Shown here piece after piece: positions 32,852-54,896 of a stretch of DNA of 64,000 bases. Every line of letters begins with the position of its first letter. Positions within the stretch are counted from its first letter, which is position 1. Made by a program: the position numbers and the translations under genes. The notes beneath the pieces are model-generated. The model worked only from the letters and a program-made list of their open reading frames with translations. It was not told the origin of the DNA and ran no database searches. Source of the DNA: Elusimicrobiota bacterium (GTDB lineage Bacteria > Elusimicrobiota > Elusimicrobia > F11); NCBI GenBank assembly GCA_044221725.1, contig JBGAON010000005.1, forward strand, positions 269,344 to 333,343, read 5' to 3'.

Positions 32852-33127
32852 ATGTCCAATACGGTAAAAATTAACGACGCCGAGAAACCCACGTCACCCA
32901 CCGGCAAAAAGCCATCGCCGCGCGTGGCGTTTGTTAATTTCGATCAATGCACCGGCTGCGAAGCGTGCATTGCGGTCGCGCCGTGGGACAACTGCCTCCT
33001 CCGCCAAAGTGACCTGCCCGAAACGTCCCACGTAAAAACAAACAACGAGGCCTGCACCGGTTGCACGCTTTGCATGAAGATTTGTCCGTGGGATGCCATT
33101 ACGATGGTTCCGCGGCCTTCGGCCTAA
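32852..33127 (+). CDS. 4Fe-4S dicluster-type ferredoxin; integration target of the element
   Basis: CTGCEACIAVAP and CTGCTLCMKICPWDAI; the last 15 codons are duplicated in recoded form at 63537-63581. Confidence 0.9.
   Translation: MSNTVKINDAEKPTSPTGKKPSPRVAFVNFDQCTGCEACIAVAPWDNCLLRQSDLPETSHVKTNNEACTGCTLCMKICPWDAITMVPRPSA
33083..33093 (+). other. attL core TGTCCGTGGGA
   Basis: Identical 11-mer at 63537-63547; both open the same CPWDAIxMxPRP reading frame. Confidence 0.85.
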
Positions 33128-33360
33128 GATTTTTTCGCGTCCTATTTCCCGCCGAATTAGCCTCCACTAAAGTCCGTCCCCAAAAACTCGATTCGCCCGA
33201 CGGAAAACGCCAACGTCGTCGATAAAATGCAACACGTTTGACAGTTCGTTGGTGAGCTTTTCTGCCCAAAACCAACCGATTTTATGGCTTGCCCAACGGG
33301 GTCTGATTCAAATGCCGCATGTGGGCGAATGTGGGTCATTGTTGCTCTTGTGAGACAAGG

Positions 33361-33545: not shown

Positions 33546-34364
33546 ATGTTGCCCAATCCCCTCTATGCTAAAGAGTCCAGCGAATTCTGGGCTCTCGTCA
33601 GATCTTCTTCTGAGAAGTTCGGCTATTCGAAACGGAAAGATAATCTATTGAAGCGATTTTCAATTGAGGACCTCGATGTTTTTAAAGAGCGTTTTCCCAT
33701 CGATTCCAAACTATGCAAAACGGTTGTAGATTATTTGAACTTTCGAGCTGAAGTGTTGGAGAAAAAGGTGCTCCCCAATCTGATGGATCGGCTTGAAGCT
33801 AAGAAAGAGTTTGAGAAATTATTGGGCAAGTATAAGCCCAAATTTCCTTTGGTGATGAATAAACAGAAGGGAGAGAAGCGTCATTACAATTATCTTTCCT
33901 GCATGGTGAATATTATCGCTGAAAAGCTCTTAGCTGATAAACCCTGCAACTTTAGCCCACGAGGGTTGTGTGTTCTGACCGACAAAGAAGGAAGACCAAT
34001 TAAGGTTTTATCTCGATGGTTGGATGGCGCGTATCCAGACGTCATAAATCCAGTAGCTATTTGGGAGATCAAGGAATATTACGGAACAACCACATTTGGA
34101 AGTCGCGTTGCGGATGGTGTTTATGAAACCCAGTTGGACGGATATGAGATCAATGAGGCTGAAAAAATATCCAACAAACGGATAAAACATTATTTATTCG
34201 TCGATGATCGGCGAACTTGGTGGGACATGGGAAAATCATATCTTTGTCGTATGATCGACATGTTGCACATGGGTTTTGTTGACGAAATAATTTTTGGAAG
34301 GGAAGTGGTTACTCGTTGGCCCGAAATTGTCCGATCTTGGGATTGCGAATCACCAAGTAAGTAA
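33546..34364 (+). CDS. Putative restriction endonuclease (PD-(D/E)xK-like)
   Basis: LDGAYP...AIWEIKEYY motif; converges on and overlaps a DNA methyltransferase gene. Confidence 0.6.
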   Translation: MLPNPLYAKESSEFWALVRSSSEKFGYSKRKDNLLKRFSIEDLDVFKERFPIDSKLCKTVVDYLNFRAEVLEKKVLPNLMDRLEAKKEFEKLLGKYKPKFPLVMNKQKGEKRHYNYLSCMVNIIAEKLLADKPCNFSPRGLCVLTDKEGRPIKVLSRWLDGAYPDVINPVAIWEIKEYYGTTTFGSRVADGVYETQLDGYEINEAEKISNKRIKHYLFVDDRRTWWDMGKSYLCRMIDMLHMGFVDEIIFGREVVTRWPEIVRSWDCESPSK

Positions 34365-35204
34365 CAACCTTTCTTTTACATCTTCGCCGATCATTACCTC
34401 GCCGCCATTCTGAAATCTTTTTAGCATCGAACTGCTTCCTCCAATCAAGATTTCTCGTTCGAATAGGCCCTCTGGAATGCCCAAGTTAATTACTTTCTTC
34501 CCTGATTTTTTGTGCCCGTCAATTGAGAGGGCCACCTTTGCACCGCGATCCTTGCAATCAATAATTGACTCAATAAGATCGGGAAGTTTAAACGATTGAG
34601 CGCCGTAAAGTATTGCCTGTGAATCCACATAAGGAGGGTCGCAGTAAATCAGGTCGCCTGATTTTGCCATGTTCATTGTTTCGGTAAATGGCTGATTAAT
34701 AAAACGTGTGAACTGAACACGTTCTTGCCATTCAAAAGCTCTTTGCGCAAATGATTCCGGGGGAATAGGTTTATGAGGGCCCACCGGAGTGCTGATGGTT
34801 CCTTGTTTTGTGAATCGAATCACGCCCCCGTAACACGTTCTGCTGATAATCAGTAGGTCGCAGGGGTTGGGATTGGCATTGTATCGAGCCAAGGTCTCAC
34901 GATAAATTACTTCCTTGTTTTCCAGTAGTTTCGGAATTACATCAGAATAATAATTGATTAATGTCTCCGGCTCCCTTTGGATGAGTTGCCAGAGGTCAAT
35001 CAATGGCGACAGCGTATCGCCTGCGATTGCTTTATCTGGTGAGAGTGTTGCCAGAATTGCGCCAGTCCCAATAAATGGCTCTATGAATGTTTCGTATGAG
35101 TCTGGGAAATGAGAAACGATTTCGTGCGCGTATTTGTATTTGCTGCCAATCCATTTTAGAAGTTGTCCATTCGGCTTGCTTGGGACGAATACTGCTGGTG
35201 TCAT
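34350..35204 (-). CDS. Dam-like (D12 class) N6-adenine DNA methyltransferase
   Basis: LKWIGSK, FIEPFIGTGAI motif I, IYCDPPY motif IV. Confidence 0.92.
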   Translation of the reverse strand: MTPAVFVPSKPNGQLLKWIGSKYKYAHEIVSHFPDSYETFIEPFIGTGAILATLSPDKAIAGDTLSPLIDLWQLIQREPETLINYYSDVIPKLLENKEVIYRETLARYNANPNPCDLLIISRTCYGGVIRFTKQGTISTPVGPHKPIPPESFAQRAFEWQERVQFTRFINQPFTETMNMAKSGDLIYCDPPYVDSQAILYGAQSFKLPDLIESIIDCKDRGAKVALSIDGHKKSGKKVINLGIPEGLFEREILIGGSSSMLKRFQNGGEVMIGEDVKERLLLTW

Positions 35205-35363: not shown

Positions 35364-36392
35364 CTAAACCGGGATTTTGCTGATATTTTTTAGATTCGGT
35401 AGATATGTCACAGCTTCTTTCAGGCTCGACGGCAACAAATGCGCGTAAATCTGTGTCGTGACGACAGTCGAGTGTCCCATCATCCGGCCAATTCGTAAAA
35501 GATCGACCCCCGCCATCGCCAAATGCGACGCAAACGTGTGCCTCAGCGAGTGGAGTGATCCCTTATTGATTCCGGCGCGCTTAAGTATTCGCGAGTAGGA
35601 TTGGGAGAACGCGATCTCTTTGTAGTACCAGGGGATAACGCGGCCCTCTCCGTTTTGTGAGGCAGCGCGCCAAATTTTGAGATGTTCGATCAACGCCGGG
35701 TGCATGGGAATTTCGCGCTCCTCCCGGTCCTTCGGGTGCCACTCTTCGTTCGGCTTGATACGCACAATCCCCGCTTGGAAATCCACGTCTTCCCACTTCA
35801 AGTTAAGCATCTCGCCACGCCGAAGCCCCAGATAGACCCCCAGATTAATGGCCGTTTGCCATAACGGATCCGCCGCCTTGAGAAGCGAATCGATTTCCTC
35901 CAGAGTGTAGAACACGGGGCGCTTTTTTACAGTCGGCATTTTTCGAACGCCCCAAATGTTGGAAGAGGCGTAGCTCCATTCGCCAGCTTTCTTCATGGCG
36001 GACTTGACCGTGACCAATTCGCGGTTGATGGTGGAGGCTTCAATCCCTTGATTCTTTCTGGTGAGCTTGAAGTCTTCCAAGTACTCTGGCGTCAAATCTC
36101 GTAACGTCCTTATAGGCATATATTTTCTGATGTTGGAAAAGACGACCCGAACTCGCACCACAGATGCGGGGGCCATGTTGGCCTCGCAATAGTTCATGTA
36201 TTGAGCTACAAAATCCTCCCAGAGGATTTCTTTTTCCGCTCCGTTCTTTTTGGCGTCGAGCCTTTTCTCGATGTCAGCCATTTCAATCCGCGCCAGGCGG
36301 ATATTGCTTCCCAGTGATTTTTCCTTCACCTTCCCGTCTTCCCGCCAATAGGCGGAATACGAATTTCCTCGTTGCCGTAATGCGACTGCCAT
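35364..36392 (-). CDS. Tyrosine integrase
   Basis: N-terminal arm-binding-like domain, STINREL, GLRRGE, HSLRHTFAS, MGHS, TQIYAH; catalytic R-H-R-H-Y set intact. Confidence 0.96.
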   Translation of the reverse strand: MAVALRQRGNSYSAYWREDGKVKEKSLGSNIRLARIEMADIEKRLDAKKNGAEKEILWEDFVAQYMNYCEANMAPASVVRVRVVFSNIRKYMPIRTLRDLTPEYLEDFKLTRKNQGIEASTINRELVTVKSAMKKAGEWSYASSNIWGVRKMPTVKKRPVFYTLEEIDSLLKAADPLWQTAINLGVYLGLRRGEMLNLKWEDVDFQAGIVRIKPNEEWHPKDREEREIPMHPALIEHLKIWRAASQNGEGRVIPWYYKEIAFSQSYSRILKRAGINKGSLHSLRHTFASHLAMAGVDLLRIGRMMGHSTVVTTQIYAHLLPSSLKEAVTYLPNLKNISKIPV

Positions 36393-36395
36393 AAG

Positions 36396-36599
36396 TCAGA
36401 CCCCCCGTTTTATTATTCGATGCAGACGAACCCACTGCTCCAACGCCTCCATCTCGACGCGAATAATCCGCTCTCCGGATTTTACCGCCCGAATTTTTCG
36501 AAGGCGAATCCATTCCCTCAACGTGTAGGGGGAAACGCGAAGCCATGCGGAGGCTTCTTTAACGGTGAGTAGTTTGTTCGTCTGCCCTGTTGTTTCCAC
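36396..36599 (-). CDS. Excisionase-like HTH protein
   Basis: LLTVKEASAWLRVSPYTLREWIRLRKIRAVK; directly upstream of the integrase. Confidence 0.85.
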   Translation of the reverse strand: METTGQTNKLLTVKEASAWLRVSPYTLREWIRLRKIRAVKSGERIIRVEMEALEQWVRLHRIIKRGV

Positions 36600-36653
36600 T
36601 CAGACCTACCTTCTTCTGATCAAGGCCATCAAGTCAAAGATTTTCAACGGAGG

Positions 36654-38021
36654 CTATGCCAAGTCTTCGACGTAGCTGATTCGCGGAGCAATTCGCATTT
36701 CCTGGACCGCCTGAAGGCTCATATATAGCGCGTCCAGGAGATCGTCGCGGCCGCGGGGAAAATTGACGAGTTCCTCTTCCAAATCCGGCAAGCTCTCCGG
36801 CAACCGAATGGCTCCATTTTCAAAGAGGACAGCGAGGCTTCGGATGCGCCGCTGTTTGTCGCCCGTGGTCGTGATGCCTTTGATGGGCAGGCGGGCGGTC
36901 GCCTCATCGACGCGCAACACCTGAAGCATGGATTGTTGGTAAGCGTTATTCTCTATGCAAACCAAGGTTGGTTTCCAAATGTGGCAGAACCGCTTGATAG
37001 TTGTGACTTGTTCCGGGAATTGAATATGAGCTCGGGTTGCTTCTAAGACGTAGGCATCCTTTTCGCCTTTTGGAATGCCGACAACAACGTATCCAAACCT
37101 TGAATGGGACTCCTTGGATCCGGACGCCAAATCAACGCCGATGTAAATATTCATGTCTTCGGGCCGCACGGTATAACGGCAAGAGCGAAGCCATTCCTGC
37201 TTAAACTCACTTTCCTGTACGGCGACATCGTTCAGCATTTGTAGGGAATAAGAACTGGCTCCCATCATGTTCCTTAACTCTTCCAGCTTTTGTTCCGAGA
37301 ACCGTTCGGGGAAAAGAAAATGTTTCTTGCCCTCTTCGTCTTTCCACTCGGCGCGCTGGACAATCTTTTTCCAATGATTAAATCCAGGCGTGCTGAGTAT
37401 GTGGCCGTAAAGGTCCTGCTGGTGCCATCGTGTGCCCACGATGCAAAGCTGACCGTCAGGCTCAAGCGATGGAAGGATGACACCGGTAAACCAGTCCAGT
37501 AATTTCTCTCGTTGCCCGGGCGCGTAGGATTTGGTGTTGGCCACCACGTCGTCCAGAATGATGAGATCGTTGTGCATGGAAACCAGATTGCCCATCACAC
37601 CGCCACAGGCAATGGATGGTTCCTTCACAACACGGGACCGAGGAATGGTGATGCTGTCTTCCGTCCACTTGGCGGCATTGGCATCCCAAGTGCCGTGGAG
37701 CTTTCGGAAGTTCTCATTCATGGTGATGTGCTGTTTGATCGCGTCCAATAGCTTCCGCGCAATCCCTTGCGTTTCGGCGATTATGAGAACGCGCAGATTG
37801 AGGTTTCTGGCCAGCCGCCAAAGCGGATAGCACGTGGTGACGACGGTCGACTTGAGATGGCCACGTGGAGCCAACAATAGGAGGTATTGGTTCTCCAACA
37901 ACGCTTGGTACCAGTCGATGTGAAGTCGAGTGAGCGCCTTGTAATCCAACACGTCCCGGCTGAACGCGAAAAGATCCTCAAGATGATCCACCGGCAGGTT
38001 TATTTTCTCTGGCTGTTTCAT
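36654..38021 (-). CDS. Phage terminase large subunit
   Basis: APRGHLKST Walker A, LIILDD Walker B, VGTRWH, GVDLA and DDLLDAL nuclease acidic residues. Confidence 0.9.
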   Translation of the reverse strand: MKQPEKINLPVDHLEDLFAFSRDVLDYKALTRLHIDWYQALLENQYLLLLAPRGHLKSTVVTTCYPLWRLARNLNLRVLIIAETQGIARKLLDAIKQHITMNENFRKLHGTWDANAAKWTEDSITIPRSRVVKEPSIACGGVMGNLVSMHNDLIILDDVVANTKSYAPGQREKLLDWFTGVILPSLEPDGQLCIVGTRWHQQDLYGHILSTPGFNHWKKIVQRAEWKDEEGKKHFLFPERFSEQKLEELRNMMGASSYSLQMLNDVAVQESEFKQEWLRSCRYTVRPEDMNIYIGVDLASGSKESHSRFGYVVVGIPKGEKDAYVLEATRAHIQFPEQVTTIKRFCHIWKPTLVCIENNAYQQSMLQVLRVDEATARLPIKGITTTGDKQRRIRSLAVLFENGAIRLPESLPDLEEELVNFPRGRDDLLDALYMSLQAVQEMRIAPRISYVEDLA

Positions 38022-38257
38022 GATTCGGCCCCCTCGATCAATGGTTGTTCAAAGAATCGTTCTAAATGTTGGTCCGCGTTTTCATAGGGAGAAATTCGTG
38101 AGTTAGAACGCTGTGGGAAACGGTTACCCCTTTGTGTTCGAGAGGCGGGCGAGAGGGGAGCATCCCCGCATCGATGGGCAAAATTTACGCTTTTCAAAAT
38201 GCCCTCCTCGAAATTCCTCTTTCCCGACGGAGAAATGTCAATTGAATGTGCATTCAA
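38018..38257 (-). CDS. Small hypothetical protein
   Basis: ATGA overlaps with both neighbours; no recognisable motif. Confidence 0.4.
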   Translation of the reverse strand: MNAHSIDISPSGKRNFEEGILKSVNFAHRCGDAPLSPASRTQRGNRFPQRSNSRISPYENADQHLERFFEQPLIEGAES

Positions 38258-38850
38258 TTGCCTCCAGGCGCACCACGTTGCGCCGTTTCGGTGGTGTTGC
38301 CGATGGATTTTGGGCCGGCGGGATCAGCGGCCGCCTCCCTTTTTTGTGGTTCGAGACCAGAGGCGCCTAGGTTCGTTTCGACGATTTTTTCTTTCAGGGG
38401 GTCGGCGGATTTCACTTCCTTGTGCTGGCGAAGGATCATGAGCGTATCCTCGCTCGCCGACCAGCCTGAAGAAGCAGGAGCGCTTTGGGCCTTGAGGGCT
38501 TGCGCGGCCTGGGACATTTTGTCGGCCAAAACCGCAATGGTGAGCGCCAAATCGCGGATGCCCTGCGGTTTTTCTTTTTTGAGTTCGCCATCAAGCCGAT
38601 GGAAGGTCAATCCAATGCTTGTCCAGCAGTGATCGATGAACGCTTTTGACCGCTTGTCTGTTTTGGATTGGAGGGAGGTCGGCATGCGGGACGTTAGGGA
38701 TTGATCCGCGTGACTCTTCCAATAAGACAGAAGCCCCTTGCTGATGCCCAACTCTTTGGCAACGTCGGTGAGAGGTTTGCCCGCGGCCAATTTCGCCAAT
38801 GCTCCTTTGATTTTTTCCGGGCTGTGACGCTGGGGACTTTTATTTTTCAT
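38254..38850 (-). CDS. HTH protein, terminase small subunit-like
   Basis: GKPLTDVAKELGISKGLLSYWK HTH, helical IRDLALTIAVLADK segment; upstream of terL. Confidence 0.6.
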   Translation of the reverse strand: MKNKSPQRHSPEKIKGALAKLAAGKPLTDVAKELGISKGLLSYWKSHADQSLTSRMPTSLQSKTDKRSKAFIDHCWTSIGLTFHRLDGELKKEKPQGIRDLALTIAVLADKMSQAAQALKAQSAPASSGWSASEDTLMILRQHKEVKSADPLKEKIVETNLGASGLEPQKREAAADPAGPKSIGNTTETAQRGAPGGN

Positions 38851-40748
38851 TGGGGTTGGCCTCCATTTGGTTTGGGAGGAGGCAGAACAACGCGTGACCC
38901 GGGGAAGTGATCTTGCGCCATTTTGATCACTTCGACGGATTTTTCGTCGTAATACTGGCGAAGCACTTTCTCGTGGTCATCAGAACCATTTTCCAGCGCG
39001 GTGGGGATATCAAGAGGAAGTGAACCTGTGAACCTAGGTGAACTATTCTCCCTCGTCCTATTATTGGACTCATCAAGGAGGTCCGATTTAGGTTGGGGTG
39101 AAAAAGGTTCACTGACGTTCACAGGTTCACTTTTGGGGGAGGGGGCTTTTTCCCCATTTCCCCCTTTTACCCCTACCGCATACCAACGCTCAGCGGATCG
39201 TCCCGCCGTGGGAACTTGTCTGAAGTACACTAAACCGCGGGTTTGTAGAAGGCCAAGGGCGGAACCGAGACTCCCGGATTTGTGGTGACCAAAAAGACGA
39301 GAACTGATTTCGGTCCGGGTCAAACCTTCGGGAGATGAGCGCAAAATGGAGAGGACTTCATCCGCCAATGGATTTCCGAGACTGTCGCCAAATATGTACA
39401 AGGCTGATTCTTCCGCGTAGCGCCACACTTCGAGCGCAGCTTCAAGGTGTTCTTTTCTGATGACGGTTGATTGATCGAGGAGCGCATAGATCAGCGCCAA
39501 ACGCATCACCTGAGCCTCGGCGCGAGAGATCACAGCGCCGAACAGACCTGGCTTACCCTCCGACAGTTTCTCGTATACCTCACGCCACAGCTTTCGAGCC
39601 TCAGGATCGCGCACAATGCACGTGCGCCCCAATTGTTGAGCAAACATCGCCGCTTTTTCAAACGCGAGATCCAATGGGCCAAAATCGACCGACCCAATGT
39701 CTCCACCCTCCGGCAGAACTTTTGACCGGCGGACACAGAAGAAAAGAATGCGGTTTGCAAAGCCATTGCCGATCTCCGTTCGATCCAAATAACGGCACAA
39801 CTCCTCCTTGGTAATGTGACCGCACATACTGATGTGAGCCTCGGTGGCTTTGGCGGGGGTGTTTTTGGTGAGAATACGAAGCCCACCGGTGTCCCACGCC
39901 TGGCGCACGACACCTGAGAGGCTGTTGCCATCGCGTTCCAGGACTCGCAACGTGGTGGCGAATTCCGGCTGAAGAGCCATGAGCCTCTTGTCAGAGACAC
40001 CAGGATCAACTTCAACCATCTGGTAATCTTCAACTTTCCCTTTCTTTTTGATGGGTTCTCGCTGCTGCACCGCGTCACGCACTGCATAGATGAGTCCTTC
40101 ACCGGAAGAAAGTCCTGTTTGTACGCAGTCGTCGACCCAATGACCGTCTATGGCTCTCATTCGTTCGCGGACATGTCCCCAAGACGTTCCTTTCCGGCCC
40201 TTCGCTGTCTCGCCGACCAAAACCGCGAAGAGGTTGGTGAAGTGACAGTCGGCTTCTGCTCTAAAGTGCGCCCCTCGGCCCACCACATTGCCGAAGGCTA
40301 CGAGTAGCTGGCTAAGGAGACCGACACGATCCGCCTCGGTATGAGGCTCCACCAAACGGACAAATTGTCCAGCAAGACCATGGAAGGCCTGCTCGCCCAA
40401 GGGTGACGGCCATTTTTGAGAAAACACTGTGGGGGAAGAAGGGGGATATGGGGAATAAGGGTCTGGTGCGTAGCGGCTGATGCTTTCGGAAATGGTTTTA
40501 ATCTCTTTTTCAGGGAGCGGTGGAGAGCAGTGGTGTTTATTTTCTTCCATCAGCGCGGCCAGGATGGCCTCTTGACCCATCCCTTTCCGGCGCATAGCGC
40601 CCGCCATGCTGGCAAGGCTTGCGTTTCTAGACCCTTCTGGAATCAATGCCGCCCCATTCATGGCCGGATGTGGCGCGGTTGGGAGTAAAAGCCCGTTTGT
40701 GAGCCAAGCGGGAGCCGGGGCCAGTGGCGTTAAATCGTTGGTTTCCAT
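38847..40748 (-). CDS. PriCT-like + DUF3987-like primase/helicase-associated replication protein
   Basis: IPEGSRNASLASMAG...PPLPEKEIKTISESI (PriCT), VGETAKGRKGT P-loop-like, NGFANR, C-terminal winged helix. Confidence 0.75.
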   Translation of the reverse strand: METNDLTPLAPAPAWLTNGLLLPTAPHPAMNGAALIPEGSRNASLASMAGAMRRKGMGQEAILAALMEENKHHCSPPLPEKEIKTISESISRYAPDPYSPYPPSSPTVFSQKWPSPLGEQAFHGLAGQFVRLVEPHTEADRVGLLSQLLVAFGNVVGRGAHFRAEADCHFTNLFAVLVGETAKGRKGTSWGHVRERMRAIDGHWVDDCVQTGLSSGEGLIYAVRDAVQQREPIKKKGKVEDYQMVEVDPGVSDKRLMALQPEFATTLRVLERDGNSLSGVVRQAWDTGGLRILTKNTPAKATEAHISMCGHITKEELCRYLDRTEIGNGFANRILFFCVRRSKVLPEGGDIGSVDFGPLDLAFEKAAMFAQQLGRTCIVRDPEARKLWREVYEKLSEGKPGLFGAVISRAEAQVMRLALIYALLDQSTVIRKEHLEAALEVWRYAEESALYIFGDSLGNPLADEVLSILRSSPEGLTRTEISSRLFGHHKSGSLGSALGLLQTRGLVYFRQVPTAGRSAERWYAVGVKGGNGEKAPSPKSEPVNVSEPFSPQPKSDLLDESNNRTRENSSPRFTGSLPLDIPTALENGSDDHEKVLRQYYDEKSVEVIKMAQDHFPGSRVVLPPPKPNGGQPQ

Positions 40749-41266
40749 TTATAGATGCCTCCGCTGATGTGGACGCTGGGTGGAGCCACCACATAGCCAC
40801 CATCTCCTCGGATGTCGATCCCCGGCAAGAGGTCGACCCTGTTTTTCATCGGTTTATCGCACGGATGGAGAAAATAAAGGTGTCGCCCTCCACCACCGGT
40901 GGCGCATTCAAGCGTGGCCGTCAACGGGCCTTTGCTGACCTCAAGCTCGGCCAGCGACACATCTCCGCCCCGCGCTGGGTCAATATCCAACACGACAATA
41001 TTGCTGACCATGCCTGTCGCAATGCCGATGTTCGCTTCCGGCCAACGACCCCACCAATTAAGGATGCGGGCCTCGTTGGTGGTGGCCTCCAACACCCCGT
41101 GTTTAACCCGTGGGTGTTTGGCTGGGCTCGAGCATTTGGGATTCCCGCAGGCGCACCCGCCACGGCCGTCCGGTTCGTAAACCGGAAAAATTGGCCAGCC
41201 CTTCCGATTGATGTAATCGAGGGCGGCCTCGCGCTTGGTGATCGCTGTTTTAATCGATATTTGCAT
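40730..41266 (-). CDS. Bifunctional DNA primase/polymerase (prim-pol) domain
   Basis: GWPIFP, CACGNPKCSSPAKHP, NIGIATG, VLDID, TGGGGRHLYF, DIRGDGGYVVAPPS; GGAGAGGAG RBS before ATG 41266. Confidence 0.92.
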   Translation of the reverse strand: MQISIKTAITKREAALDYINRKGWPIFPVYEPDGRGGCACGNPKCSSPAKHPRVKHGVLEATTNEARILNWWGRWPEANIGIATGMVSNIVVLDIDPARGGDVSLAELEVSKGPLTATLECATGGGGRHLYFLHPCDKPMKNRVDLLPGIDIRGDGGYVVAPPSVHISGGIYKWKPTI

Positions 41267-41279: not shown

Positions 41280-41351
41280 AAAAAAAGGCGCTGTCATCGG
41301 CGGATCAAATAACCCGCCAACAACAGCGCCTCGGTTTGTCCGACAACGCTA
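41280..41351 (-). promoter_or_regulatory. Antiterminator-like hairpin overlapping an intrinsic terminator (copy 1)
   Basis: Minus strand TAGCGTTGTCGGACAAACCGAGGCGCTG..., then a 20-bp stem with G-U pairs, TATTTG loop and T run. Confidence 0.75.
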
Positions 41352-41356: not shown

Positions 41357-41533
41357 CTATTGTTTTTTTGATAATTCTCGTTTCAATTCTTCCAACTTCA
41401 TGCTCCGTTCTTCTTGGATCCGGCAGATGCGGCCATCCTCCCAGCTTAGAACCACTTTCCCATAGAAGCGACGCTGGCGCATAAGGCGAACCCACTCAAG
41501 TAAAATTTCCTCAGGGATGGGCCCACCGCTCAT
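41357..41533 (-). CDS. 58-aa YezD/DUF2292-like small protein (below the ORF-track cutoff)
   Basis: MSGGPIPEEILLEWVRLMRQRRFYGKVVLSWEDGRICRIQEERSMKLEELKRELSKKQ; GGAG RBS; FYG-V-x-x-x-x-DG-I-x-x-I-x-x-E pattern. Confidence 0.7.
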   Translation of the reverse strand: MSGGPIPEEILLEWVRLMRQRRFYGKVVLSWEDGRICRIQEERSMKLEELKRELSKKQ

Positions 41534-41629
41534 TTGATGCTCCGCATGTTCATAGTTCTCATATTCAACTCCAAATCCCTATATGTTAGCGATATATGTA
41601 CAAAAGCTACCTCAAAAGGCAAAAAAATA

Positions 41630-42631
41630 TCAGGCCGTATAAAGCTCAAGTCCCTCCGGGGTATAAACCTCAGACAAAGTCCAGGACTCGAGCGCTTTTT
41701 TCAATTTTTTATCGCCCTTCGCAGCCCACCCCAGCGACCGGCACAGTGTCCGCGCCAGCAATGCGCTAAGCGTGGCCTGAGCCCCGCTGTAGGCTTCGAT
41801 GGTTTCTTCCCGGTTTCTCTCTTTGGCAACGTACAAGTCATAGTGGATGCGGGAGGTGACGTCCTCCCAACTTTTTTGAAAGCGGAGAAGATAGCGTGGA
41901 TCAACATCCAGTTTTCCTTTGGACCGGACAAAGCAAACCATGTCCAATAATTGGAGGAAGGCGACGCGGGAATCGACGGCATGCCCAGACGTATTGAGTA
42001 TCCGAAGCGGAACATCCGACAACTCATTGCGAAGTTTCTCGCTTTCGATTCGAGCGATTTCCTCTTCCTTCATTCGCGGGAGGTTCTGTTTATGGGAGAG
42101 ATCGTTTATGGCTTTTTGAATTCGTTTGTGCGCTTCCTCTTGAATAAGCCATCCCCACCGGTCGTCAGCGAGTCGGATCTGCAATGTCAGCCGCTTTAAA
42201 CTCATAGCCTCATAGTCCCGCGTATAGTTATCCTTTCGCCCGTTGATCCCGACGAAGGCATAGAAGTGATTGAGATCGTCGAGGAAAATCTTAAAAAAGG
42301 CGTCGAGGTATTCGTCTCGTAATTGAATGATTCCTTGTTTGAATAGGTATTCGGCCAGCCACTTCCGAATCTGCGTATCGGAGCATCCCACGATGCGACC
42401 GATCTCGGCCAGCGTCCGGCGCCGCGTTGATTTCCAAAGAAGCATTTGGAGTTGAGCATTGAATTTCTTCTGTGTCAGTGGCCGAGTTTCATCGCGGGGA
42501 ATACCGGTGCGGGGTTGTTCTTCGAATGATTCTGACTTGCGCTGCATAAATAGAAGAAGATCAACGTCGGAGAAAAAATCCCGACGCGTTTTGTATTGGG
42601 GTGGAAGAAATCGGTCCGGCCCATTAACCAT
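41630..42631 (-). CDS. Hypothetical protein with an HTH
   Basis: TLAEIGRIVGCSDTQIRKWL; 333-aa ORF co-oriented with the module. Confidence 0.65.
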   Translation of the reverse strand: MVNGPDRFLPPQYKTRRDFFSDVDLLLFMQRKSESFEEQPRTGIPRDETRPLTQKKFNAQLQMLLWKSTRRRTLAEIGRIVGCSDTQIRKWLAEYLFKQGIIQLRDEYLDAFFKIFLDDLNHFYAFVGINGRKDNYTRDYEAMSLKRLTLQIRLADDRWGWLIQEEAHKRIQKAINDLSHKQNLPRMKEEEIARIESEKLRNELSDVPLRILNTSGHAVDSRVAFLQLLDMVCFVRSKGKLDVDPRYLLRFQKSWEDVTSRIHYDLYVAKERNREETIEAYSGAQATLSALLARTLCRSLGWAAKGDKKLKKALESWTLSEVYTPEGLELYTA

Positions 42632-42685
42632 AGTAGCGATAAACTACTATACGCTACTAAATATGTCAATTGAAAATATTGAGAG

Positions 42686-44592: not shown

Positions 44593-46425
44593 ATGAGTGA
44601 AGAAATTCCCAGAAAAGACATTGTTTATTTTTCGTCGGCCAAATATCTGATCGGGTGTGCGGTGGCGGCTGTCGTCTTCCTATTGATCGGGAAAATTAAT
44701 CCATTTCCGGCCTGGTTTATTGCAGTGGAAGTGTTTGTGGCGGTGATTGCGCTTTTTGTCTTTGGGTCCATCCGTGACCGCCTGGACAAAAATGCGCTGA
44801 CCTATGGCGCGGTTCTCATCATCACAGCGACGTTTTGGGAATCGTGGTGGAGAGAATCGGGATTGAGAACCGATTTTTCAGCCGAAGGTTTTGGCGCGAT
44901 CCTTCGGTTTTTTCAGCACCATTTCCTGTCACTGCATGGCTTAGATGAGATCGTTCACGCCGATACCATGTTGTTTATTTTAGGCCTAACGTTTTTTGTC
45001 GCGGTCATAGCTCAGACCCGTATTCTCGAAACGATTAGTTTTTCCATCCTCAATAAGTTCAAAGGAAACGTTGTGCCAACGGTGGCGCTTCTCGCGGCCA
45101 TCGTCTCATTCTCATCGGGTATTTTGGATGGTGTTTCCATGATCGGCCTGATGATCCGGACGCTTGTGATCATCCTCTTCCTGGCCAGAATTAAGGATGA
45201 AGCTGTTGTGTATGCGGTGGTGGTATCGACGGTGGTCACAACGGTGTGCGGAATGTGGCTGGCCTATGGAGAACCACCCAACCTCATCATGAAATCCAAT
45301 CTCTCGCCGCATCTGAATGACGCGTTCTTCCTGCGATATTGCTTGCCGGTTGCCATCGGCGCTTATTTCATCGTGCTTTGGAACATCAAGCGAAAACTCA
45401 AGGGTCAGAAAGTCGACATATCGAAACTGGATGTGCTTGACCTCAATACGGCGGATGTACGGTTCATTCAGGCGCAACGGCATGGCAAAGTTTTAACGCC
45501 GATAGAGTTTGCTGAAGAGCACCGCCAGCAACTGGCCGAGCATTACGAACCGTTGATTCGCCGGCTTCATCAGGGTGAGACGCTTGGCGACGCTTTGACG
45601 GCCGAGCATATTCCACAAAGTGTCCGGCAATATCTAATGGGGCAATATGTGTCGGAAGATCTTGCGGAGGCGCTGGATCACCATTACTCAGTCGTGTTGA
45701 AAGATGATGCGCTTAATAACGATGATTCCATGCGCAAGATATCCAAGGCGCTGGCATGGATCCGCCAACGTCGAGTGCGTACACAATGGATTGGCGGCAT
45801 TTCGTTTATCCCATTTATCGGACTCTTGGTCTGGCATGCGATTGACCATGACGTTCCACTTTTTCTGGCATCTTTCGCCGGATTCGCAGTCGCCTTCTTA
45901 GGTATTCTAGGGATCACCAATATGCGGAGATTGGCTTTGCGCGAGGCCCGCCACGAATATGCGGAGTACCTTTTTCTTTTCCCGCTTTTCTTCTCGATAA
46001 CCCTGCTTCAAAAGACCGGTTTCTTTCAGCAGCTTGCGGATTTGCTCCATCACGGCGTCGAAAAATTGGGCCCACCACACATGGCCTTTCTTCAATTTAT
46101 CGGGACGGGATTTTTGTCTGCGATGTTGGACAACAACGTCGTAGCGGATTTCGCGGGCCGGGCGATTATGGGATTGGAATTAAGCGTTCTTCACCTTTTC
46201 GCCATGGCCCAGATTGCAGGATACGCGGTGGGGGGATGCTGGACACACATCGGTTCGGCCCAATCGGTTGTGGCTTATTCGTTCATTCGAAATGAAGTCG
46301 ACGAACACTTCACGCCGTTTCAGTGGATCAAAGCCATGACCCCTATCGTCTTAGAAATTTCGGTTTGGGTGACCGTGGTTATCTATGGCGAGGCTCTCCT
46401 TTTGCAATATCTTCCGGAGCATTAG
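44593..46425 (+). CDS. Ion transporter superfamily permease (SLC13/ArsB/NhaD-like)
   Basis: Many TM segments, GILDGV, YGEPPNLIM, SAMLDNNV, THIGSAQSVVA. Confidence 0.8.
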   Translation: MSEEIPRKDIVYFSSAKYLIGCAVAAVVFLLIGKINPFPAWFIAVEVFVAVIALFVFGSIRDRLDKNALTYGAVLIITATFWESWWRESGLRTDFSAEGFGAILRFFQHHFLSLHGLDEIVHADTMLFILGLTFFVAVIAQTRILETISFSILNKFKGNVVPTVALLAAIVSFSSGILDGVSMIGLMIRTLVIILFLARIKDEAVVYAVVVSTVVTTVCGMWLAYGEPPNLIMKSNLSPHLNDAFFLRYCLPVAIGAYFIVLWNIKRKLKGQKVDISKLDVLDLNTADVRFIQAQRHGKVLTPIEFAEEHRQQLAEHYEPLIRRLHQGETLGDALTAEHIPQSVRQYLMGQYVSEDLAEALDHHYSVVLKDDALNNDDSMRKISKALAWIRQRRVRTQWIGGISFIPFIGLLVWHAIDHDVPLFLASFAGFAVAFLGILGITNMRRLALREARHEYAEYLFLFPLFFSITLLQKTGFFQQLADLLHHGVEKLGPPHMAFLQFIGTGFLSAMLDNNVVADFAGRAIMGLELSVLHLFAMAQIAGYAVGGCWTHIGSAQSVVAYSFIRNEVDEHFTPFQWIKAMTPIVLEISVWVTVVIYGEALLLQYLPEH

Positions 46426-46447
46426 CCGAAACCGTAGGTGTACTGGC

Positions 46448-47059
46448 TTATTCAAGCGCAGTGAGGATTTTTTTCTGAATTTCTTCGCCATCGATTGAAA
46501 GACTTAACTTTTTGTGAAACAAGCGGTAGTGATTAATGAGGCCTGTCGAATAAGAAGCAAGTGATAGAGCCATTGTTCTTGCCTTCTCAGCTTGGCGGGA
46601 GGACCCACCTAGGGATCGAATCAAAAGATCTGCCAGTTGAAGGAGATAGTCTCCGTAGATTTCCTTAAGATTCGCAGAGATTCCCTGCTTAAGCTGAAGC
46701 AAACCTCTGACTTGATGAAAAATAAGAACAAATGATTCTTCTCTCAATAAAAAATCAACATGGGCTTTTACGAGTGCCTTTAAGGCATCTTGATGGTTGT
46801 CGTTTTTTTGAACCGACAACTGGCATCGAGCCATAAGCTTGTCGAGTCCGTCTCTGAGGAGGTTTTCGAGCAGTTCGTCTTTCCCAGAGAAATACTGATA
46901 GAAGGTGCCCTTTCCAATATCCGCCTTCTCGGTGACGTCTTCAATGGTTGTTACGTAGATACCTTGTCTTGAAATGATATCGAGAGCTACGGCCATGAGC
47001 GTTTCGCGCGTTAGTTTTTTCTTTCGTTCCCGCCTCGTCAAATCTTCCGTTGCTTCCAC
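46448..47059 (-). CDS. TetR/AcrR-family regulator
   Basis: RRERKK...TTIEDVTEKADIGKGTFYQYFSGKDEL. Confidence 0.93.
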   Translation of the reverse strand: MEATEDLTRRERKKKLTRETLMAVALDIISRQGIYVTTIEDVTEKADIGKGTFYQYFSGKDELLENLLRDGLDKLMARCQLSVQKNDNHQDALKALVKAHVDFLLREESFVLIFHQVRGLLQLKQGISANLKEIYGDYLLQLADLLIRSLGGSSRQAEKARTMALSLASYSTGLINHYRLFHKKLSLSIDGEEIQKKILTALE

Positions 47060-47116
47060 GTTTCCTCCCCAGTACGGGTTATCAAGATAATTACGTGTGA
47101 GAATCCTTGCATAATC

Positions 47117-47150
47117 TTGACCGGTCAGTCAATTTTGACTACTGTGTCAA
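47117..47150. promoter_or_regulatory. Two tandem TTGAC-N6-GTCAA operators
   Basis: TTGACCGGTCAGTCAA (47117-47132) and TTGACTACTGTGTCAA (47135-47150) between divergent tetR and otsA. Confidence 0.7.
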
Positions 47151-47205
47151 AAATGGGACCCGCACACGTATTTTTCCTAAAAAAAGCTGATTCGACGGAG
47201 TCAAA

Positions 47206-49461
47206 GTGAAGATCACGCTCCGTCTTGTTTTATCGCTGGTGGCCGTCATAACGATGGTGGTCGCTCTATTCACGTTTTTGCAAGTCCGGCATGAAGAAAA
47301 AGTGATGCTGGAAGAAATGGAACGAAGGGGCGCGCTTCTGGCGGAAAGTCTTCAGGATTCTATTGAGCCCCATCTTGCTCCCCGCAATGAAAAGGGACTT
47401 GCGAGAATTGTTGAGAAATTCGGGAATCGTGAACGCGTGGCTGGAATTGCGGTTTACGGTCCTGACAAATCAATTGTTGCCATGACGAAGAGTCTCGCAG
47501 CCTGGCTTCCCGATCCGCCCTCTGCGGTCGCCACCTCTCTTGCCGAAGGAACGGCGCGGGGTGAGCTTTTCAGTCCTTCAAAAGAAAAAGCAATTTACGG
47601 ATATTTCTTTCCTTTCACTTCCCCGGACGGCTCCTCCTACTTATTGGCATCCTATCATCCCGCCAATCACATTCGCACACGTCTTAGAGACTTGTACCAA
47701 CAAGGGTTTATCCGCCTGTTCTTACAGGCATTTCTCATTTCGCTTGTAACGATTTTCATTATTCGATGGAACGTCATGGCCCCGCTCCATAAGGCCGCTG
47801 ATTGGATTAAGAAGCTTCGCCTGGGAGAAGAAGGACCCCACGCCTCTCTTCCGAAAGAACTTTTTGGTCCCCTGGAAAAAGAAGTGACTCGCTTAGCGAA
47901 GAGTTTTACGACCGCTCGGGCCGCCGCTGAAGAAGAGGCCAAGCTCCGCCAGCAAGCCGATTCCATTTGGACCTCCGACCGCCTGCGTGAGTATGTTCGC
48001 ACGAAACTGCCGGATCAAAAGCTTCTAGTGGTTTCTAACCGCGAGCCCTACATGCATGTCCGAAAAGGAAAAGACGTTGACTGCATCATGCCGGCCAGCG
48101 GTCTTGTCACGGCGCTTGAACCCATATTGAGAGCCTGTGGTGGCACGTGGGTGGCGCATGGAGCCGGAGGCGCTGATAAGGAAATGACCGGTACAGACAA
48201 TCGGCTAAAGGTTCCACCGGATGAGCCCCAGTACCTCCTTCGCCGAGTTTGGCTTTCGAAAGAGGAAGAAGATGGCTATTACTACGGATTTTCCAATGAA
48301 GGGTTTTGGCCTCTATGTCACATCGCTCATAATCGTCCCGTTTTTAAGCCTGAAGACTGGGACTATTATCAAACTGTCAACGGCAAGTTCGCTGACGCCG
48401 TTTTGGAAGAAATTGAAAATGACGAAGAGCCTTTGATTCTAATTCAGGACTATCATTTTGCTCTCCTCCCCCGGTTGATCAAGGATAAGCGCCCGGATGC
48501 GCGTATCGCTCTTTTCTGGCATATCCCTTGGCCTAATCCTGAATCATTTGGCATCTGCCCGTGGCAGCGCGAAATCGTTCATGGAATGCTGGGCGCGGAC
48601 CTCATTGGATTTCACATCCAACAACACTGCACCAATTTCTTAGACACCGTGGACCGAACGGTTGAATGCCGGATCGATTGGGAACGATTCGTTGTTAATC
48701 GGCAAGACCACAAAACGCTCGTCAAACCGTTTCCCATCAGTGTTGCGTTAACACCCTCGGCGACAAATGGATCACCGGCCCCTAAACCTTCCGCTGATAA
48801 AGAAGCGATCTTCAAGCAACTTGGGATTAAAGGGCAATATCTTGCCGTGGGAGTGGATCGAATTGACTACACCAAAGGCATTATCGAACGGTTCCGGGGC
48901 ATCGAACGTTTCTTGGAAAAAAACCCCAATTATCAAGGCAAGTTCGTGTTTGTGGAATTGGGCGCGCCGAGCCGCACCCTTATCAAACGCTACCACGATC
49001 TGATGGCGGAAGTGGAAGAGGAAGCCGAGCGGATCAATTGGAAGTTCAAGTCAAAAGAATGGCAGCCCATCGTGTTTTTAAAGAAACATCACAGTCATCA
49101 AGACATTGAGCCTTTCTACAAAACGGCTGACCTGTGTCTTGTCACCTCGTTGCACGATGGAATGAATTTGGTCGCCAAAGAATACATTGCCGCCCGCGAC
49201 GATGAAGATGGCGCTCTGATACTAAGCCGGTTCACTGGCGCTTCGCGAGAACTTCCTGATGCTTTCATCATTAATCCCTACGACGTGGATAGAACCGCCG
49301 ATGCGATACGGGCCGCGTTGGAAATGGAACCCGAGGAACGCCGAAAAAGAATGCGGCGAATGAGAACAGTGGTGATGGGAAACAACATTTATAAGTGGGG
49401 CGCCAACTTGATCGAAGATCTTTCGCAAATCAGATTGGAAACCAACACGCCGGTCGCTTAA
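47206..49461 (+). CDS. otsA: Trehalose-6-phosphate synthase with N-terminal 2-TM sensor/HAMP-like fusion
   Basis: VVSNREP, ASGLVTAL, IQDYH, HIPWP, VDRIDYTKG, DGMNLVAKEY; about 270 extra N-terminal residues with two TM helices. Confidence 0.92.
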   Translation: MKITLRLVLSLVAVITMVVALFTFLQVRHEEKVMLEEMERRGALLAESLQDSIEPHLAPRNEKGLARIVEKFGNRERVAGIAVYGPDKSIVAMTKSLAAWLPDPPSAVATSLAEGTARGELFSPSKEKAIYGYFFPFTSPDGSSYLLASYHPANHIRTRLRDLYQQGFIRLFLQAFLISLVTIFIIRWNVMAPLHKAADWIKKLRLGEEGPHASLPKELFGPLEKEVTRLAKSFTTARAAAEEEAKLRQQADSIWTSDRLREYVRTKLPDQKLLVVSNREPYMHVRKGKDVDCIMPASGLVTALEPILRACGGTWVAHGAGGADKEMTGTDNRLKVPPDEPQYLLRRVWLSKEEEDGYYYGFSNEGFWPLCHIAHNRPVFKPEDWDYYQTVNGKFADAVLEEIENDEEPLILIQDYHFALLPRLIKDKRPDARIALFWHIPWPNPESFGICPWQREIVHGMLGADLIGFHIQQHCTNFLDTVDRTVECRIDWERFVVNRQDHKTLVKPFPISVALTPSATNGSPAPKPSADKEAIFKQLGIKGQYLAVGVDRIDYTKGIIERFRGIERFLEKNPNYQGKFVFVELGAPSRTLIKRYHDLMAEVEEEAERINWKFKSKEWQPIVFLKKHHSHQDIEPFYKTADLCLVTSLHDGMNLVAKEYIAARDDEDGALILSRFTGASRELPDAFIINPYDVDRTADAIRAALEMEPEERRKRMRRMRTVVMGNNIYKWGANLIEDLSQIRLETNTPVA

Positions 49462-49463
49462 CG

Positions 49464-50237
49464 ATGCAGTATTTGTTTTCGGATTGGCCGGACATCTCTA
49501 AGCGGCTTCGTTCTGCGTCTCATAGGCTTTATCTTTTCGACATCGACGGAACTCTGGCGTCGATTGAAAAAGTTCCACAGGCTGCGCGAATTCATGCGCC
49601 ATTGCGGCGGCTCTTATATTCCCTTTCCGTCACGCCTCGATCAACCGTGGGAATTATTTCTGGCCGTCAGCTTGATGACGCCAGGGAGATGGTCGGGTTG
49701 CAGCACCTAATTTATGCCGGGAATCATGGGTTGGAAGTGTGTTTTAACGGAAGCAGGCATATTGAACGACAGGCTAGAAATCACGCACACGCGCTTGAGC
49801 TTATTTACCGTGATGCCAAACAAGCATTTGGCGATGTGCCAGGAGCCATCGTCGAGTGGAAAGGGCTCACCATGAGTTTGCATTACCGGATGGTCGAGAA
49901 GAAAAATATGGCGAAGTTTGAACGAATTTTTCAAGAGGACATCGTCCCGCTTTTGGCGCGCGATAAATTTCAGCATCGAAAAGGAAAGAAGGTAATCGAA
50001 ATTATTCCCTTCGGCGATTGGAGTAAGGGAACCGTTGTCGAAATGCTGGCAAAACATTTCCGAAAGCCAGTGACGATTTTCATTGGAGATGATGTGACCG
50101 ACGAGGGAGCTTTCGGTGTCATGGGGCCTGATGATGTCTCCGTCCGAGTTGGACACAAGGATGATTCGAAAGCTCTCTACTACTTAAAAAACCAGGGAGA
50201 GGTAAAAAAACTTCTTCAGCGCTTGGTTAAATTGTAA
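49464..50237 (+). CDS. otsB: Trehalose-6-phosphate phosphatase
   Basis: FDIDGTL, ISGR, GNHGLE, IGDDVTDEGAF. Confidence 0.93.
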   Translation: MQYLFSDWPDISKRLRSASHRLYLFDIDGTLASIEKVPQAARIHAPLRRLLYSLSVTPRSTVGIISGRQLDDAREMVGLQHLIYAGNHGLEVCFNGSRHIERQARNHAHALELIYRDAKQAFGDVPGAIVEWKGLTMSLHYRMVEKKNMAKFERIFQEDIVPLLARDKFQHRKGKKVIEIIPFGDWSKGTVVEMLAKHFRKPVTIFIGDDVTDEGAFGVMGPDDVSVRVGHKDDSKALYYLKNQGEVKKLLQRLVKL

Positions 50238-50626
50238 TGCCGATCCCAAACGAAATTAAATTGTTCATCAGTCAGTATATTGGATCAATTCAGCAGTTGG
50301 AGGTCTTGCTGGCCGTTAGCTCTGAGCCGGAACGCAATTGGAGCCCTGAAGAAATCAGCAAAAAGCTTGGGTTGGATGTAACGGCGGTGACCAACCGGCT
50401 CCTGAGCCTCTGCGTCAAGGGATTGGTTCGTTCAGATGAAAAGCAGGCTCGCACGTTCTGCTATCAGCCCGAGGGAACCGTCGCGGACATCATGGTGAAA
50501 AAGCTTGCGTCGCTCTATAGAGAACACCCGGCGCCCTTGGTGGAATTTATTTGCTCCCGGGCTGAGAGCCGATTGCGAGATTTTTCAGACGCTTTCAAGC
50601 TAAATCAGGAAGAAGAAAATGATTAA
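50237..50626 (+). CDS. Hypothetical winged-helix-like protein
   Basis: SIQQLEVLL...WSPEEIS...FSDAFKL; overlapping start and stop codons. Confidence 0.7.
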   Translation: MPIPNEIKLFISQYIGSIQQLEVLLAVSSEPERNWSPEEISKKLGLDVTAVTNRLLSLCVKGLVRSDEKQARTFCYQPEGTVADIMVKKLASLYREHPAPLVEFICSRAESRLRDFSDAFKLNQEEEND

Positions 50627-50876
50627 GGCTATTTACATGCTGTGCGGCCTCACAAGCGTTGGCTGCGCAATTCTGTTGGTAAGGCGTTATCTCCGCACAA
50701 AAACCAAGCTTCTTCTTTTGAGCAGCGTTTTCTTTATGACGCAAGCCGTGACGAATATTCTTCTTTTTGTTGATCTCGTTGTGGTGCCTGATATCGATTT
50801 GTCCCCGCTGCGAAGTCTCATCGCTATTATCGGGCTCGTTTTTCTTCTATTCGGCTTGATCTGGGAAACTTCATGA
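50619..50876 (+). CDS. Small 3-TM protein (DUF5985-like)
   Basis: IYMLCGLTSVGCAILL...NILLFVDL...GLIWE. Confidence 0.75.
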   Translation: MIKAIYMLCGLTSVGCAILLVRRYLRTKTKLLLLSSVFFMTQAVTNILLFVDLVVVPDIDLSPLRSLIAIIGLVFLLFGLIWETS

Positions 50877-51142
50877 CCTTATTTCTCTCAGGCGTGATAA
50901 TGGCTCTATATTGGGCTGCCGCTCTTTTCTTTTTCCGGTTTTGGAACAAGACCTATGACCGTCTTTTTGGAGCATTCGGTTTGGCGTTATGGCTTCTTGG
51001 CCTGGAGCGATTGATTTTTCTTTTTGTTCCTCAAGCGCACGAGGCTCAGCCTTATATTTATTTGGTCCGGCTTATGGCCTTCATTTTGATCCTCATTGCG
51101 ATTGTGGACAAAAATGTGAAACACGGAGACGAACAATCCTAA
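50873..51142 (+). CDS. Small 3-TM protein (DUF5985-like)
   Basis: FFFRFWNKTYDRLF...YLVRLMAFILILIAIVDKN. Confidence 0.75.
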   Translation: MTLFLSGVIMALYWAAALFFFRFWNKTYDRLFGAFGLALWLLGLERLIFLFVPQAHEAQPYIYLVRLMAFILILIAIVDKNVKHGDEQS

Positions 51143-51147
51143 AAGTT

Positions 51148-53047: not shown

Positions 53048-53093
53048 GAGGAGGTCATTCGGAACAATTGAAAGCGCTACAAACTCCAACTTG

Positions 53094-53372: not shown

Positions 53373-53407
53373 AGGCGTGATAACCTCTATAATTGAGCAG
53401 TAAATCT

Positions 53408-53468
53408 TAACGTTGTTGGGCAAACCAAGGCGTTGCTGTTCCCATCTGGGATCGGCGACGCCTTTTTT
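53408..53468 (+). promoter_or_regulatory. Antiterminator-like hairpin overlapping an intrinsic terminator (copy 2)
   Basis: TAACGTTGTTGGGCAAACCAAGGCGTTGCTGTTCCCATCTGGGATCGGCGACGCCTTTTTT. Confidence 0.75.
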
Positions 53469-54893: not shown

Positions 54894-54896
54894 AAA

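Follow-up and report, generated by a model that had tools for sequence, protein, structure and literature searches.

A DUF2292-like small protein gene and its hairpin-terminator switch in a mobile element of Elusimicrobiota: a candidate RNA-binding antiterminator

The window, by which we mean the whole 64,000-nt stretch of Elusimicrobiota DNA that was analyzed, contains a 58-codon gene followed by an RNA element with two mutually exclusive folds, a small hairpin (hairpin A) and an intrinsic terminator, each supported by compensatory base changes. Taken together, the comparisons of sequences and predicted folds make it fairly probable that the 58-aa protein on its own serves as an antiterminator and binds RNA sequence-specifically, in the manner of BglG or LicT on their RAT hairpins, while not being a CAT protein itself. 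The elements concerned are the following, all within the window.

41357–41533, minus strand: gene for a 58-aa DUF2292-like protein (“RFYG” group), with an ATG start, a candidate RNA-binding antiterminator containing RQRRFYGKVVLSWEDGRICRIQEERS
41540–41543, minus strand: candidate ribosome-binding site GGAG, 6 nt before the ATG of the 58-aa gene
41325–41350, minus strand: hairpin A of switch copy 1 (antiterminator fold), 26 nt, with a 6-bp lower stem, one bulged purine, and a 4-bp upper stem
41280–41330, minus strand: intrinsic terminator of switch copy 1, stem 41330–41287, followed by T7
53409–53468, plus strand: switch copy 2, with hairpin A at 53409–53434 and the terminator at 53429–53468
57567–57626, plus strand: switch copy 3, with hairpin A at 57567–57592 and the terminator at 57587–57626

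An unannotated 58-aa ORF with a GGAG ribosome-binding site had been proposed here by an earlier note made from the sequence alone, and both are present (ORF 41533–41357, GGAG 41543–41540, minus strand). The TAG stop codon ends at 41357 and hairpin A starts at 41350, leaving a gap of 6 nt, or the 5 nt of that note if the preceding T is counted. Over 52 codons, 22 of the gene's differences from its orthologue in genome G350, the nearest one with DNA available, are synonymous and 10 are non-synonymous, with a dN/dS of approximately 0.04 at a dS near saturation; it is a real gene, under purifying selection. Four close relatives of the protein are found, at 73–83% identity, and 18 cluster representatives match it at E ≤ 0.001. 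The protein is mildly basic (8 R, 5 K, 9 E, and 1 D; net +3), and in an alignment of 37 rows G25 and G34 are invariant, with basic residues maintained at R22 (31/37), R35 (31/37), and K46 (28/37). The Arg-rich core emphasized earlier is present in the window protein, with its eight arginines, but the R-Q-R-R run is not conserved, positions 19–21 being basic in 8, 9, and 11 of the 37 rows, respectively, and R22 alone being maintained, so that neither a conserved arginine-rich RNA-binding helix nor binding in the mode of an arginine-rich motif is supported by this alignment. The Pfam scan recognized no further domain in the protein, scans of the ORF against PHROGs, NCBIfam, and PADLOC gave no informative match, and sequence profile searches of the PDB gave chance-level matches only. 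Likewise, tblastn against annotated phages produced no match, and locus searches by protein, run with the five closest sequences on contigs from viruses and metagenomes, produced no confirmed one. The ESM Atlas search returned leads only (0.81–0.82), one of them a cluster with 30% DUF2292, and a search with a canonical DUF2292 member as the query, clusters of PF10055 being excluded, returned nothing. Public RNA contigs from four runs, all of one study, are scattered at a depth of 2–9, and one of them, of 151 nt, spans most of the ORF; such contigs carry no strand, end, or termination information, and may represent DNA.

As to the family, the likeness to DUF2292/YezD/OscA suggested earlier holds as a distant kinship, but not as formal membership. 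The window protein finds no match in PF10055 at E ≤ 1 (gathering cut-off 22 bits), and a PF10055 search of the whole genome did not report the locus. Its relatives do provide the connection: seven of the 23 match PF10055 at E ≤ 1, the best at 5.6e-5, and an hhalign comparison of the 37-row RFYG profile with a 24-row canonical DUF2292 profile gives a probability of 94.9% (E 4.6e-8, 41 columns), or of 28.8% with the five closest sequences alone. A tree of 46 columns, from a short alignment whose two sets were gathered by different searches, places the RFYG group apart from canonical DUF2292 at 100/100, with most inner forks open. By these sequence measures the 58-aa protein is a member of a sister group, “RFYG,” of the DUF2292/YezD/OscA proteins. 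The OscA equivalog model NF033785 (at least 85 bits) does not match it, and scores a paralogue on contig C3 of the same genome at 12.7 bits. The superfamily appears wider than either profile, as small ORFs with a similar strand-turn-strand pattern, each followed by a canonical-type hairpin and terminator, occur at two loci (L222 in G282:C2 and L211 in G350:C19) and are detected by neither the RFYG nor the canonical profile. Both groups also include forms with two repeats of the domain (L144, L147, L148, L150, L152, L153, L158; L238–L240), which hints that the single-domain protein may work as a dimer. Of the canonical relatives, oscA is co-transcribed with cysP and has a role in sulphur starvation and chromate resistance, according to the text available for PMC3596284; yezD is up in starvation, and its deletion produced no survival phenotype, in the available part of PMC6385201; and a DUF2292 gene is listed among down-regulated genes in the accessible portion of PMC7921472. 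The literature covered, which leaves most subscription journals and bioRxiv supplements aside, contains no description of the hairpin, nor of RNA binding or termination by DUF2292/yezD, and a printed description or an entry in a supplementary RNA-motif table may exist.

The second component is the RNA. Six bases (41330–41325) are common to the 3′ arm of hairpin A and the 5′ arm of the terminator, and the 121-nt region folds at z = −6.7, with 0 of 200 shuffles being as stable. The apical loop of hairpin A, of 5–6 nt, is variable in length and sequence, the lower stem and the bulge being kept, and the 26-nt hairpin of G350 differs from that of the window in the loop only. In an alignment of 20 copies, pairing reaches 93.5% for hairpin A and 99.4% for the terminator, and both partners of a pair have changed at 4 of 10 and 5 of 9 pairs, respectively. 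For both, the percentage paired and the covariation score lie above all 500 shuffles, results that are not to be read as probabilities, the aligned sequences being related, and slid controls of the alignments are 24–72% paired; one measure, that of further pair types, was not above the shuffled values. One example of compensation is a shared position at which C is replaced by T in copies 2 and 3: its terminator partner co-changes in both, and its hairpin A partner is changed in copy 2 and forms a G-U pair in copy 3. When hairpin A is imposed on copies 1–3, the fold is less stable than with the terminator by 10.3, 8.8, and 8.8 kcal/mol, respectively, and with the terminator thus favored by approximately 9–10 kcal/mol the default should be termination, unless something holds hairpin A. 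No match to Rfam at the gathering level was found in the whole window, and none at E ≤ 1 over the hairpin at 10 loci.

The gene and the switch are linked across genomes, as the earlier note would have predicted. A broad profile, in the making of which seven of the loci had been used, produces 35 homologue matches in 24 of the 401 genomes of the phylum, own genome included (a false match inside a long ORF, L010, from the first phylum search was dropped), and a hairpin and terminator follow downstream in 25 of these, or in 24 of 34 if the window is not counted. The distance from stop codon to hairpin is 3–16 nt at 24 of the 25 linked loci and approximately 118 nt at one. Judging from translations, six of the linked genes head operons of the primase/replication type, and 19 those for prohead protease and capsid. 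The 10 matches without a downstream switch include seven longer proteins, apparently with two repeats, whose genes have an HTH_17-like gene immediately behind them; at four of these loci a similar hairpin-terminator is placed upstream (two detected by script, two near-identical by eye), and for the other three none was found within the DNA fetched. Of the remaining three matches, one is truncated, one, encoding a canonical DUF2292, shows a hairpin of the canonical type but no evident terminator, and one (G010:C5) gives no pattern match. At canonical DUF2292 loci, mostly from two other phyla, a related hairpin is found within 250 nt in 14 of 31 cases, with controls at 0/31 for the opposite strand and 0/31 upstream; the other 17 have no match to the strict hairpin pattern. 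The count of 31 retains a Firmicutes-set locus (L252) without a DUF2292-like translation, which was left out of the 24-row canonical alignment. A scan of the species-genome collection with the motif alone gave 114 matches, four of them with a terminator, and all four have the stop of a homologue (62–95 bits) 6–7 nt upstream; the other 110 have no homologue above 2.8 bits. A homologue 3–10 nt upstream likewise accompanies 10/10 hairpin-plus-terminator matches in metagenomes and 8/8 in viral contigs, many of which are near-duplicates or repeats of the phylum loci. The DNA patterns were designed from gene-adjacent copies and the loci belong to related mobile elements, so these counts overstate independence.

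Some of the individual loci deserve mention. Two of the Firmicutes type (L225:1290–1398 and L244:1170–1341) have the DUF2292 gene behind a SAM or cobalamin riboswitch and ahead of a hairpin-terminator, which suggests a relay from riboswitch to antiterminator. In G298 (L188, G298:C60:113811) a switch stands before a primase operon, and upstream of that switch only 9 codons of the small gene survive, together with promoter-like DNA that is conserved. The capsid-operon paralogues (L134–L143, L146, L155–L157, L159) have, by eye, a TGGAC-type −35 and a −10 a few bases before the ATG, giving them a leaderless look, and often a palindromic AACAG/CTGTT-type repeat upstream.

In the window, the gene and its switch reside within what is probably an integrated element of approximately 30.5 kb, the ends, or attachment site, of which would be a pair of 47-nt repeats.

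33083–33129, plus strand: 47-nt repeat, left copy, at the 3′ end of a ferredoxin-like gene (identity by eye)
63537–63583, plus strand: 47-nt repeat, right copy, 70% identical to the left copy
40730–41266, minus strand: first gated gene, bifunctional primase/polymerase (Prim-Pol, PF09250), ATG at 41266
38847–40748, minus strand: gated PriCT_1 and DUF3987 primase/helicase-type replication protein
38850–38254, minus strand: HTH protein, downstream of the replication genes, closely packed
38021–36654, minus strand: terminase-like nuclease, closely packed
36599–36396, minus strand: HTH_17 excisionase-like gene, closely packed
36392–35364, minus strand: tyrosine integrase, closely packed
41586–41622, minus strand: weak promoter-like pair, −35 TTGCCT, 16 nt, −10 TACATA, overlapped by an imperfect inverted repeat GTAGC-N15-GCTAA (41610–41586), a putative operator
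41630–42631, minus strand: 333-aa protein with an N-terminal HTH (HTH_28 E 7.7e-5, below cut-off), candidate regulator of two operator-like repeats
42633–42657, minus strand: perfect inverted repeat GTAGC-N15-GCTAC over the TTGACA-type promoter of the 333-aa gene

The order on the minus strand is XerD-like recombinase, 333-aa HTH protein, 58-aa gene, switch, Prim-Pol, PriCT/DUF3987, HTH, terminase-like nuclease, HTH_17, and integrase, and the same order is found in G350; the genes of 35364–38850 would be co-transcribed with the gated operon. Among the element ORFs scanned, which represent part of the element, no capsid or tail gene was recognized, and the element thus looks like a satellite or a defective prophage. 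Its cargo (44593–63269, approximately 19 kb) includes a CitMHS-type transporter, trehalose-synthesis-like genes (by eye), DUF4010/MgtC, MFS, LysR, a flavodoxin-like gene, superoxide dismutase, and a haem-binding protein, and its left end encodes a Type II restriction enzyme paired with a D12 adenine methyltransferase (33546–35204). A 33-nt inverted repeat with internal GTGAAC-type repeats (39018–39132), in the 3′ part of the DUF3987 gene, is a possible replication origin.

The small gene plausibly heads the operon. In the 96-nt gap on its 5′ side the consensus scan recognized no promoter, and it recognized no terminator after the preceding gene; the gap does contain the weak −35/−10 pair, conserved in G350. 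Genome-wide, the pattern GTAGC-N15-GCTA[C/A] is restricted to two sites, both conserved in G350, a lead rather than a result, the pattern having been derived after the fact from these same two sites. The arrangement suggests that the 333-aa HTH protein may set the input of the circuit, and its own mRNA may be leaderless, as the gene starts approximately 9 nt after its −10 box. The positive-feedback switch envisaged by the earlier note is, as a direct loop, not supported by the layout. The 58-aa gene lies upstream of the terminator and its mRNA is complete regardless, so read-through cannot raise it, and the circuit is a delay or threshold gate. Feedback could only be indirect, through replication of the excised element, or through the two-repeat forms with the hairpin upstream. 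At two such loci (L150/L152) the gene is preceded by two promoter-hairpin-terminator units, and true positive autoregulation would be possible with this arrangement.

Switch copies without the small gene provide a different line of evidence. With a covariance model, the own genome yields six copies, five strong and one partial, and G282 yields 14 matches. Twelve copies without an upstream homologue were read, nine of them directly before an intact-looking class III nucleotide-cyclase gene (PF00211), represented in the window by the following.

57644–58342, plus strand: class III nucleotide-cyclase gene (PF00211), directly behind switch copy 3

The other three are copy 2, a partial copy without a terminator, and a copy before a tail-region gene in the G282 prophage. 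Upstream of copy 2 are an HTH_17 gene and a perfect TATAAT box, and downstream come the decayed 5′ end of a cyclase gene and the DUF4010/MgtC gene; copy 3 has neither an upstream small ORF nor a good −10 box. A TATAAT-like box (at least 5 of 6) is present 3–18 nt upstream of 10 of the 12, the exceptions being copy 3 and the tail-region copy. This leaves no room for a leader ORF and would require a diffusible factor, and the lone copies thus favor one acting in trans. A search for the cyclase itself gives 11 matches in 5 of the 401 genomes: the hairpin immediately precedes all nine short forms (window 57644–58342; G000:C3:77542–78237; L215–L219, L221, L189), and in the 1.5 kb upstream of the two long forms (G314, G298) no hairpin pattern is present. 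The short cyclase gene appears as a recurring passenger of these elements. Its likeness to PADLOC PycC is weak (E 1.2e-5), no Pycsar-type effector was seen beside it by eye, and two of the copies are, by eye, divergent from a PilZ-like gene. Copies 2 and 3 were also considered as attachment sites, and rejected, as both folds are kept, the same cyclase gene lies behind them in three genomes, and the ends of the element map to other repeats.

The earlier note had the window protein acting in trans on copies 2 and 3, and the part of this claim that stands is the trans-acting factor, but not this protein in particular. A second paralogue in the own genome (G000:C3:123281–123448), with its own switch, heads a prohead protease/capsid/tail operon, and in G282, which has six cyclase-linked lone hairpins, all six homologues are of the capsid-operon type. 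With the conserved part of the RNA being the lower stem and the bulge, and not the loop, cross-recognition is plausible, and copies 2 and 3 might just as well be targets of the C3 paralogue. In G392 a lone hairpin occurs with no homologue found (the genome being 85% complete, in 530 contigs), and in G298 the hairpin is present along with truncated homologues only. The C3 region (G000:C3:77500–142400; L160, L161, L263) is large and prophage-like, with terminase, capsid, and tail genes, a recombinase, and the paralogous small gene with its switch, and it also encodes homologues of the 111-aa, 158-aa, and XerD-like genes of the window; it may be a helper or parent of the window element. A more speculative scheme, and a rather improbable one, is that the DUF2292-like proteins of the prophage late operon and of the element open each other's gates through a shared RNA code, the element thereby sensing induction of the helper, with the lone hairpins turning on the cyclase only when such a protein appears, as a phage-triggered signaling or defence output.

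The mechanism that we favor would proceed as follows. A promoter in the 96-nt gap, probably controlled by the 333-aa HTH protein, would switch on the 58-aa gene. The RNA beyond the stop codon would form either hairpin A or the terminator, as folding and covariation indicate, with transcription stopping by default. Once accumulated, the protein would bind the lower stem and bulge of hairpin A and hold the six shared bases, and the polymerase would then continue through to the genes for primase, replication, terminase, excisionase, and integrase. The lone, cyclase-side copies would be opened in trans, by either the 58-aa protein or its prophage paralogue. The antiterminator reading is suggested by the variable loop and by the lower stem and bulge that are kept, as these resemble the protein-read RAT hairpins described in the available text of PMC5393181. 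The most likely reading, and a fairly probable one, is that a new protein family is combined here with a mechanism of a known kind, local antitermination at an overlapping hairpin.

The same arrangement can be read in other ways, one of which makes the protein incidental, or gives it some other job. A ribosome finishing the ORF would cover the 5′ arm of hairpin A and let the terminator form, and an uncoupled or stalled one would let hairpin A form. Such a translation-coupled attenuator agrees with the stop codon being 3–16 nt before the hairpin in 24/25 linked phylum loci and 3–10 nt before it in 18/18 collection matches, a spacing that lies within a ribosome footprint. We consider it decidedly unlikely, however, because the lone copies keep both folds without an upstream ORF, 10 of the 12 with a −10-like box 3–18 nt upstream, because the stop codon is 118 and 141 nt away in two cis cases and the hairpin precedes the gene at four loci, and because residues are selected along the whole length of the protein, unlike those of a leader peptide; moreover, without a ligand hairpin A is 9–10 kcal/mol less favorable than the terminator fold.

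Several observations would speak for another opener of hairpin A, such as a host RNA-binding protein, another protein of the element such as the HTH_17 protein, an antisense RNA, or a small ligand such as a cyclic nucleotide made by the cyclase, with the small gene traveling along for another reason: the hairpin is directly upstream of 9/9 short-form cyclase genes in the 401 genomes, copy 2 follows an HTH_17 gene, and no intact homologue was found for the hairpins of G392 and G298. This too is unlikely, as the adjacency of gene and hairpin recurs before unrelated operons (primase, prohead protease/capsid, loci of the Firmicutes type) and an HTH_17 gene adjoins only 1 of the 12 lone copies. As to a ligand, the hairpin is a single one of 26 nt without an Rfam match, to our knowledge smaller than known riboswitch aptamers. 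Processive antitermination like that of lambda N, with the hairpin as a loading site from which the modified polymerase would ignore several downstream terminators, could be argued from a small phage-type protein heading long operons, from the Arg run of the window copy, and from a second hairpin inside the G282 tail operon (L213). We regard it as very unlikely: the hairpin overlaps the terminator in every aligned copy, with covariation in both, as expected of structures that compete locally, the run of arginines is not maintained, and a second copy within an operon makes better sense with a separate site required for each terminator.

If local antitermination by the 58-aa protein is correct, it would provide a function for a widespread but functionally uncharacterized family, represented by YezD in Bacillus subtilis and OscA in Pseudomonas, and would add a class of RNA-binding antiterminators that have no sensor domain and are controlled by their own concentration. 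It would also provide temperate elements with a means to time their replication and late genes. As the parts are tiny (58 aa and approximately 70 nt of RNA), the pair could serve as a compact synthetic switch.

Among the known systems, the closest parallel is with BglG/SacY/LicT. Their RAT hairpins, as described in the part of PMC5393181 available, are of 29–33 nt, with a variable apical loop and 6–10 nt in common with an intrinsic terminator, and are read by an RNA-binding unit of approximately 55 aa. A small RNA-binding unit and an overlapping hairpin are likewise what we find here (58 aa, putatively RNA-binding; 26 nt, 6 nt shared). However, the window family has no homology to the CAT domain (hhalign probability 0.1%; CAT_RBD in Pfam matches 0/23 family members and nothing in the genome), the 58-aa protein lacks the PRD sensor domains, hairpin A has one bulge in place of two internal loops, and the gene lies upstream of its switch, in a mobile element. 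Lambda N with its nut sites, and related arginine-rich-motif antiterminators, share with this system a small protein of a temperate element, expected here to switch on replication or late genes by read-through, but lambda N employs an arginine-rich motif and a distant loading site, whereas here the run of arginines is not maintained across the family, and the hairpin and the terminator overlap. The regulator gene of the hut operon likewise lies ahead of the terminator. Neither the 58-aa protein nor its relatives match HutP or ANTAR in Pfam, the feature in common with these being protein-dependent read-through of a leader terminator, putative here (PMC12591593, in part). In the available text of this 2025 review of RNA-binding antiterminators, CAT, ANTAR, and HutP are covered, with no mention of DUF, YezD, or OscA, and ANTAR is described with dual hairpins (PMC12591593), unlike the single hairpin of the window switch. 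With the canonical DUF2292/YezD/OscA proteins (PF10055, NF033785) the protein shares a helix and a [YF]G-x8-G strand-turn-strand pattern, and many canonical genes have a related hairpin downstream, with A/A where the hairpin of the RFYG group has T-A; the context differs, OscA being found in a sulphate-uptake operon and the 58-aa gene in a primase operon. As to the element as a whole, PICI-type phage satellites are the known class for comparison, with which it has in common the integrase, the excisionase, the primase/replication module, and the terminase-like gene, along with no capsid or tail gene recognized in the part scanned and a capsid-encoding prophage elsewhere in the same genome; as a putative satellite, or possibly a defective prophage, it differs in carrying approximately 19 kb of stress and metabolic cargo.
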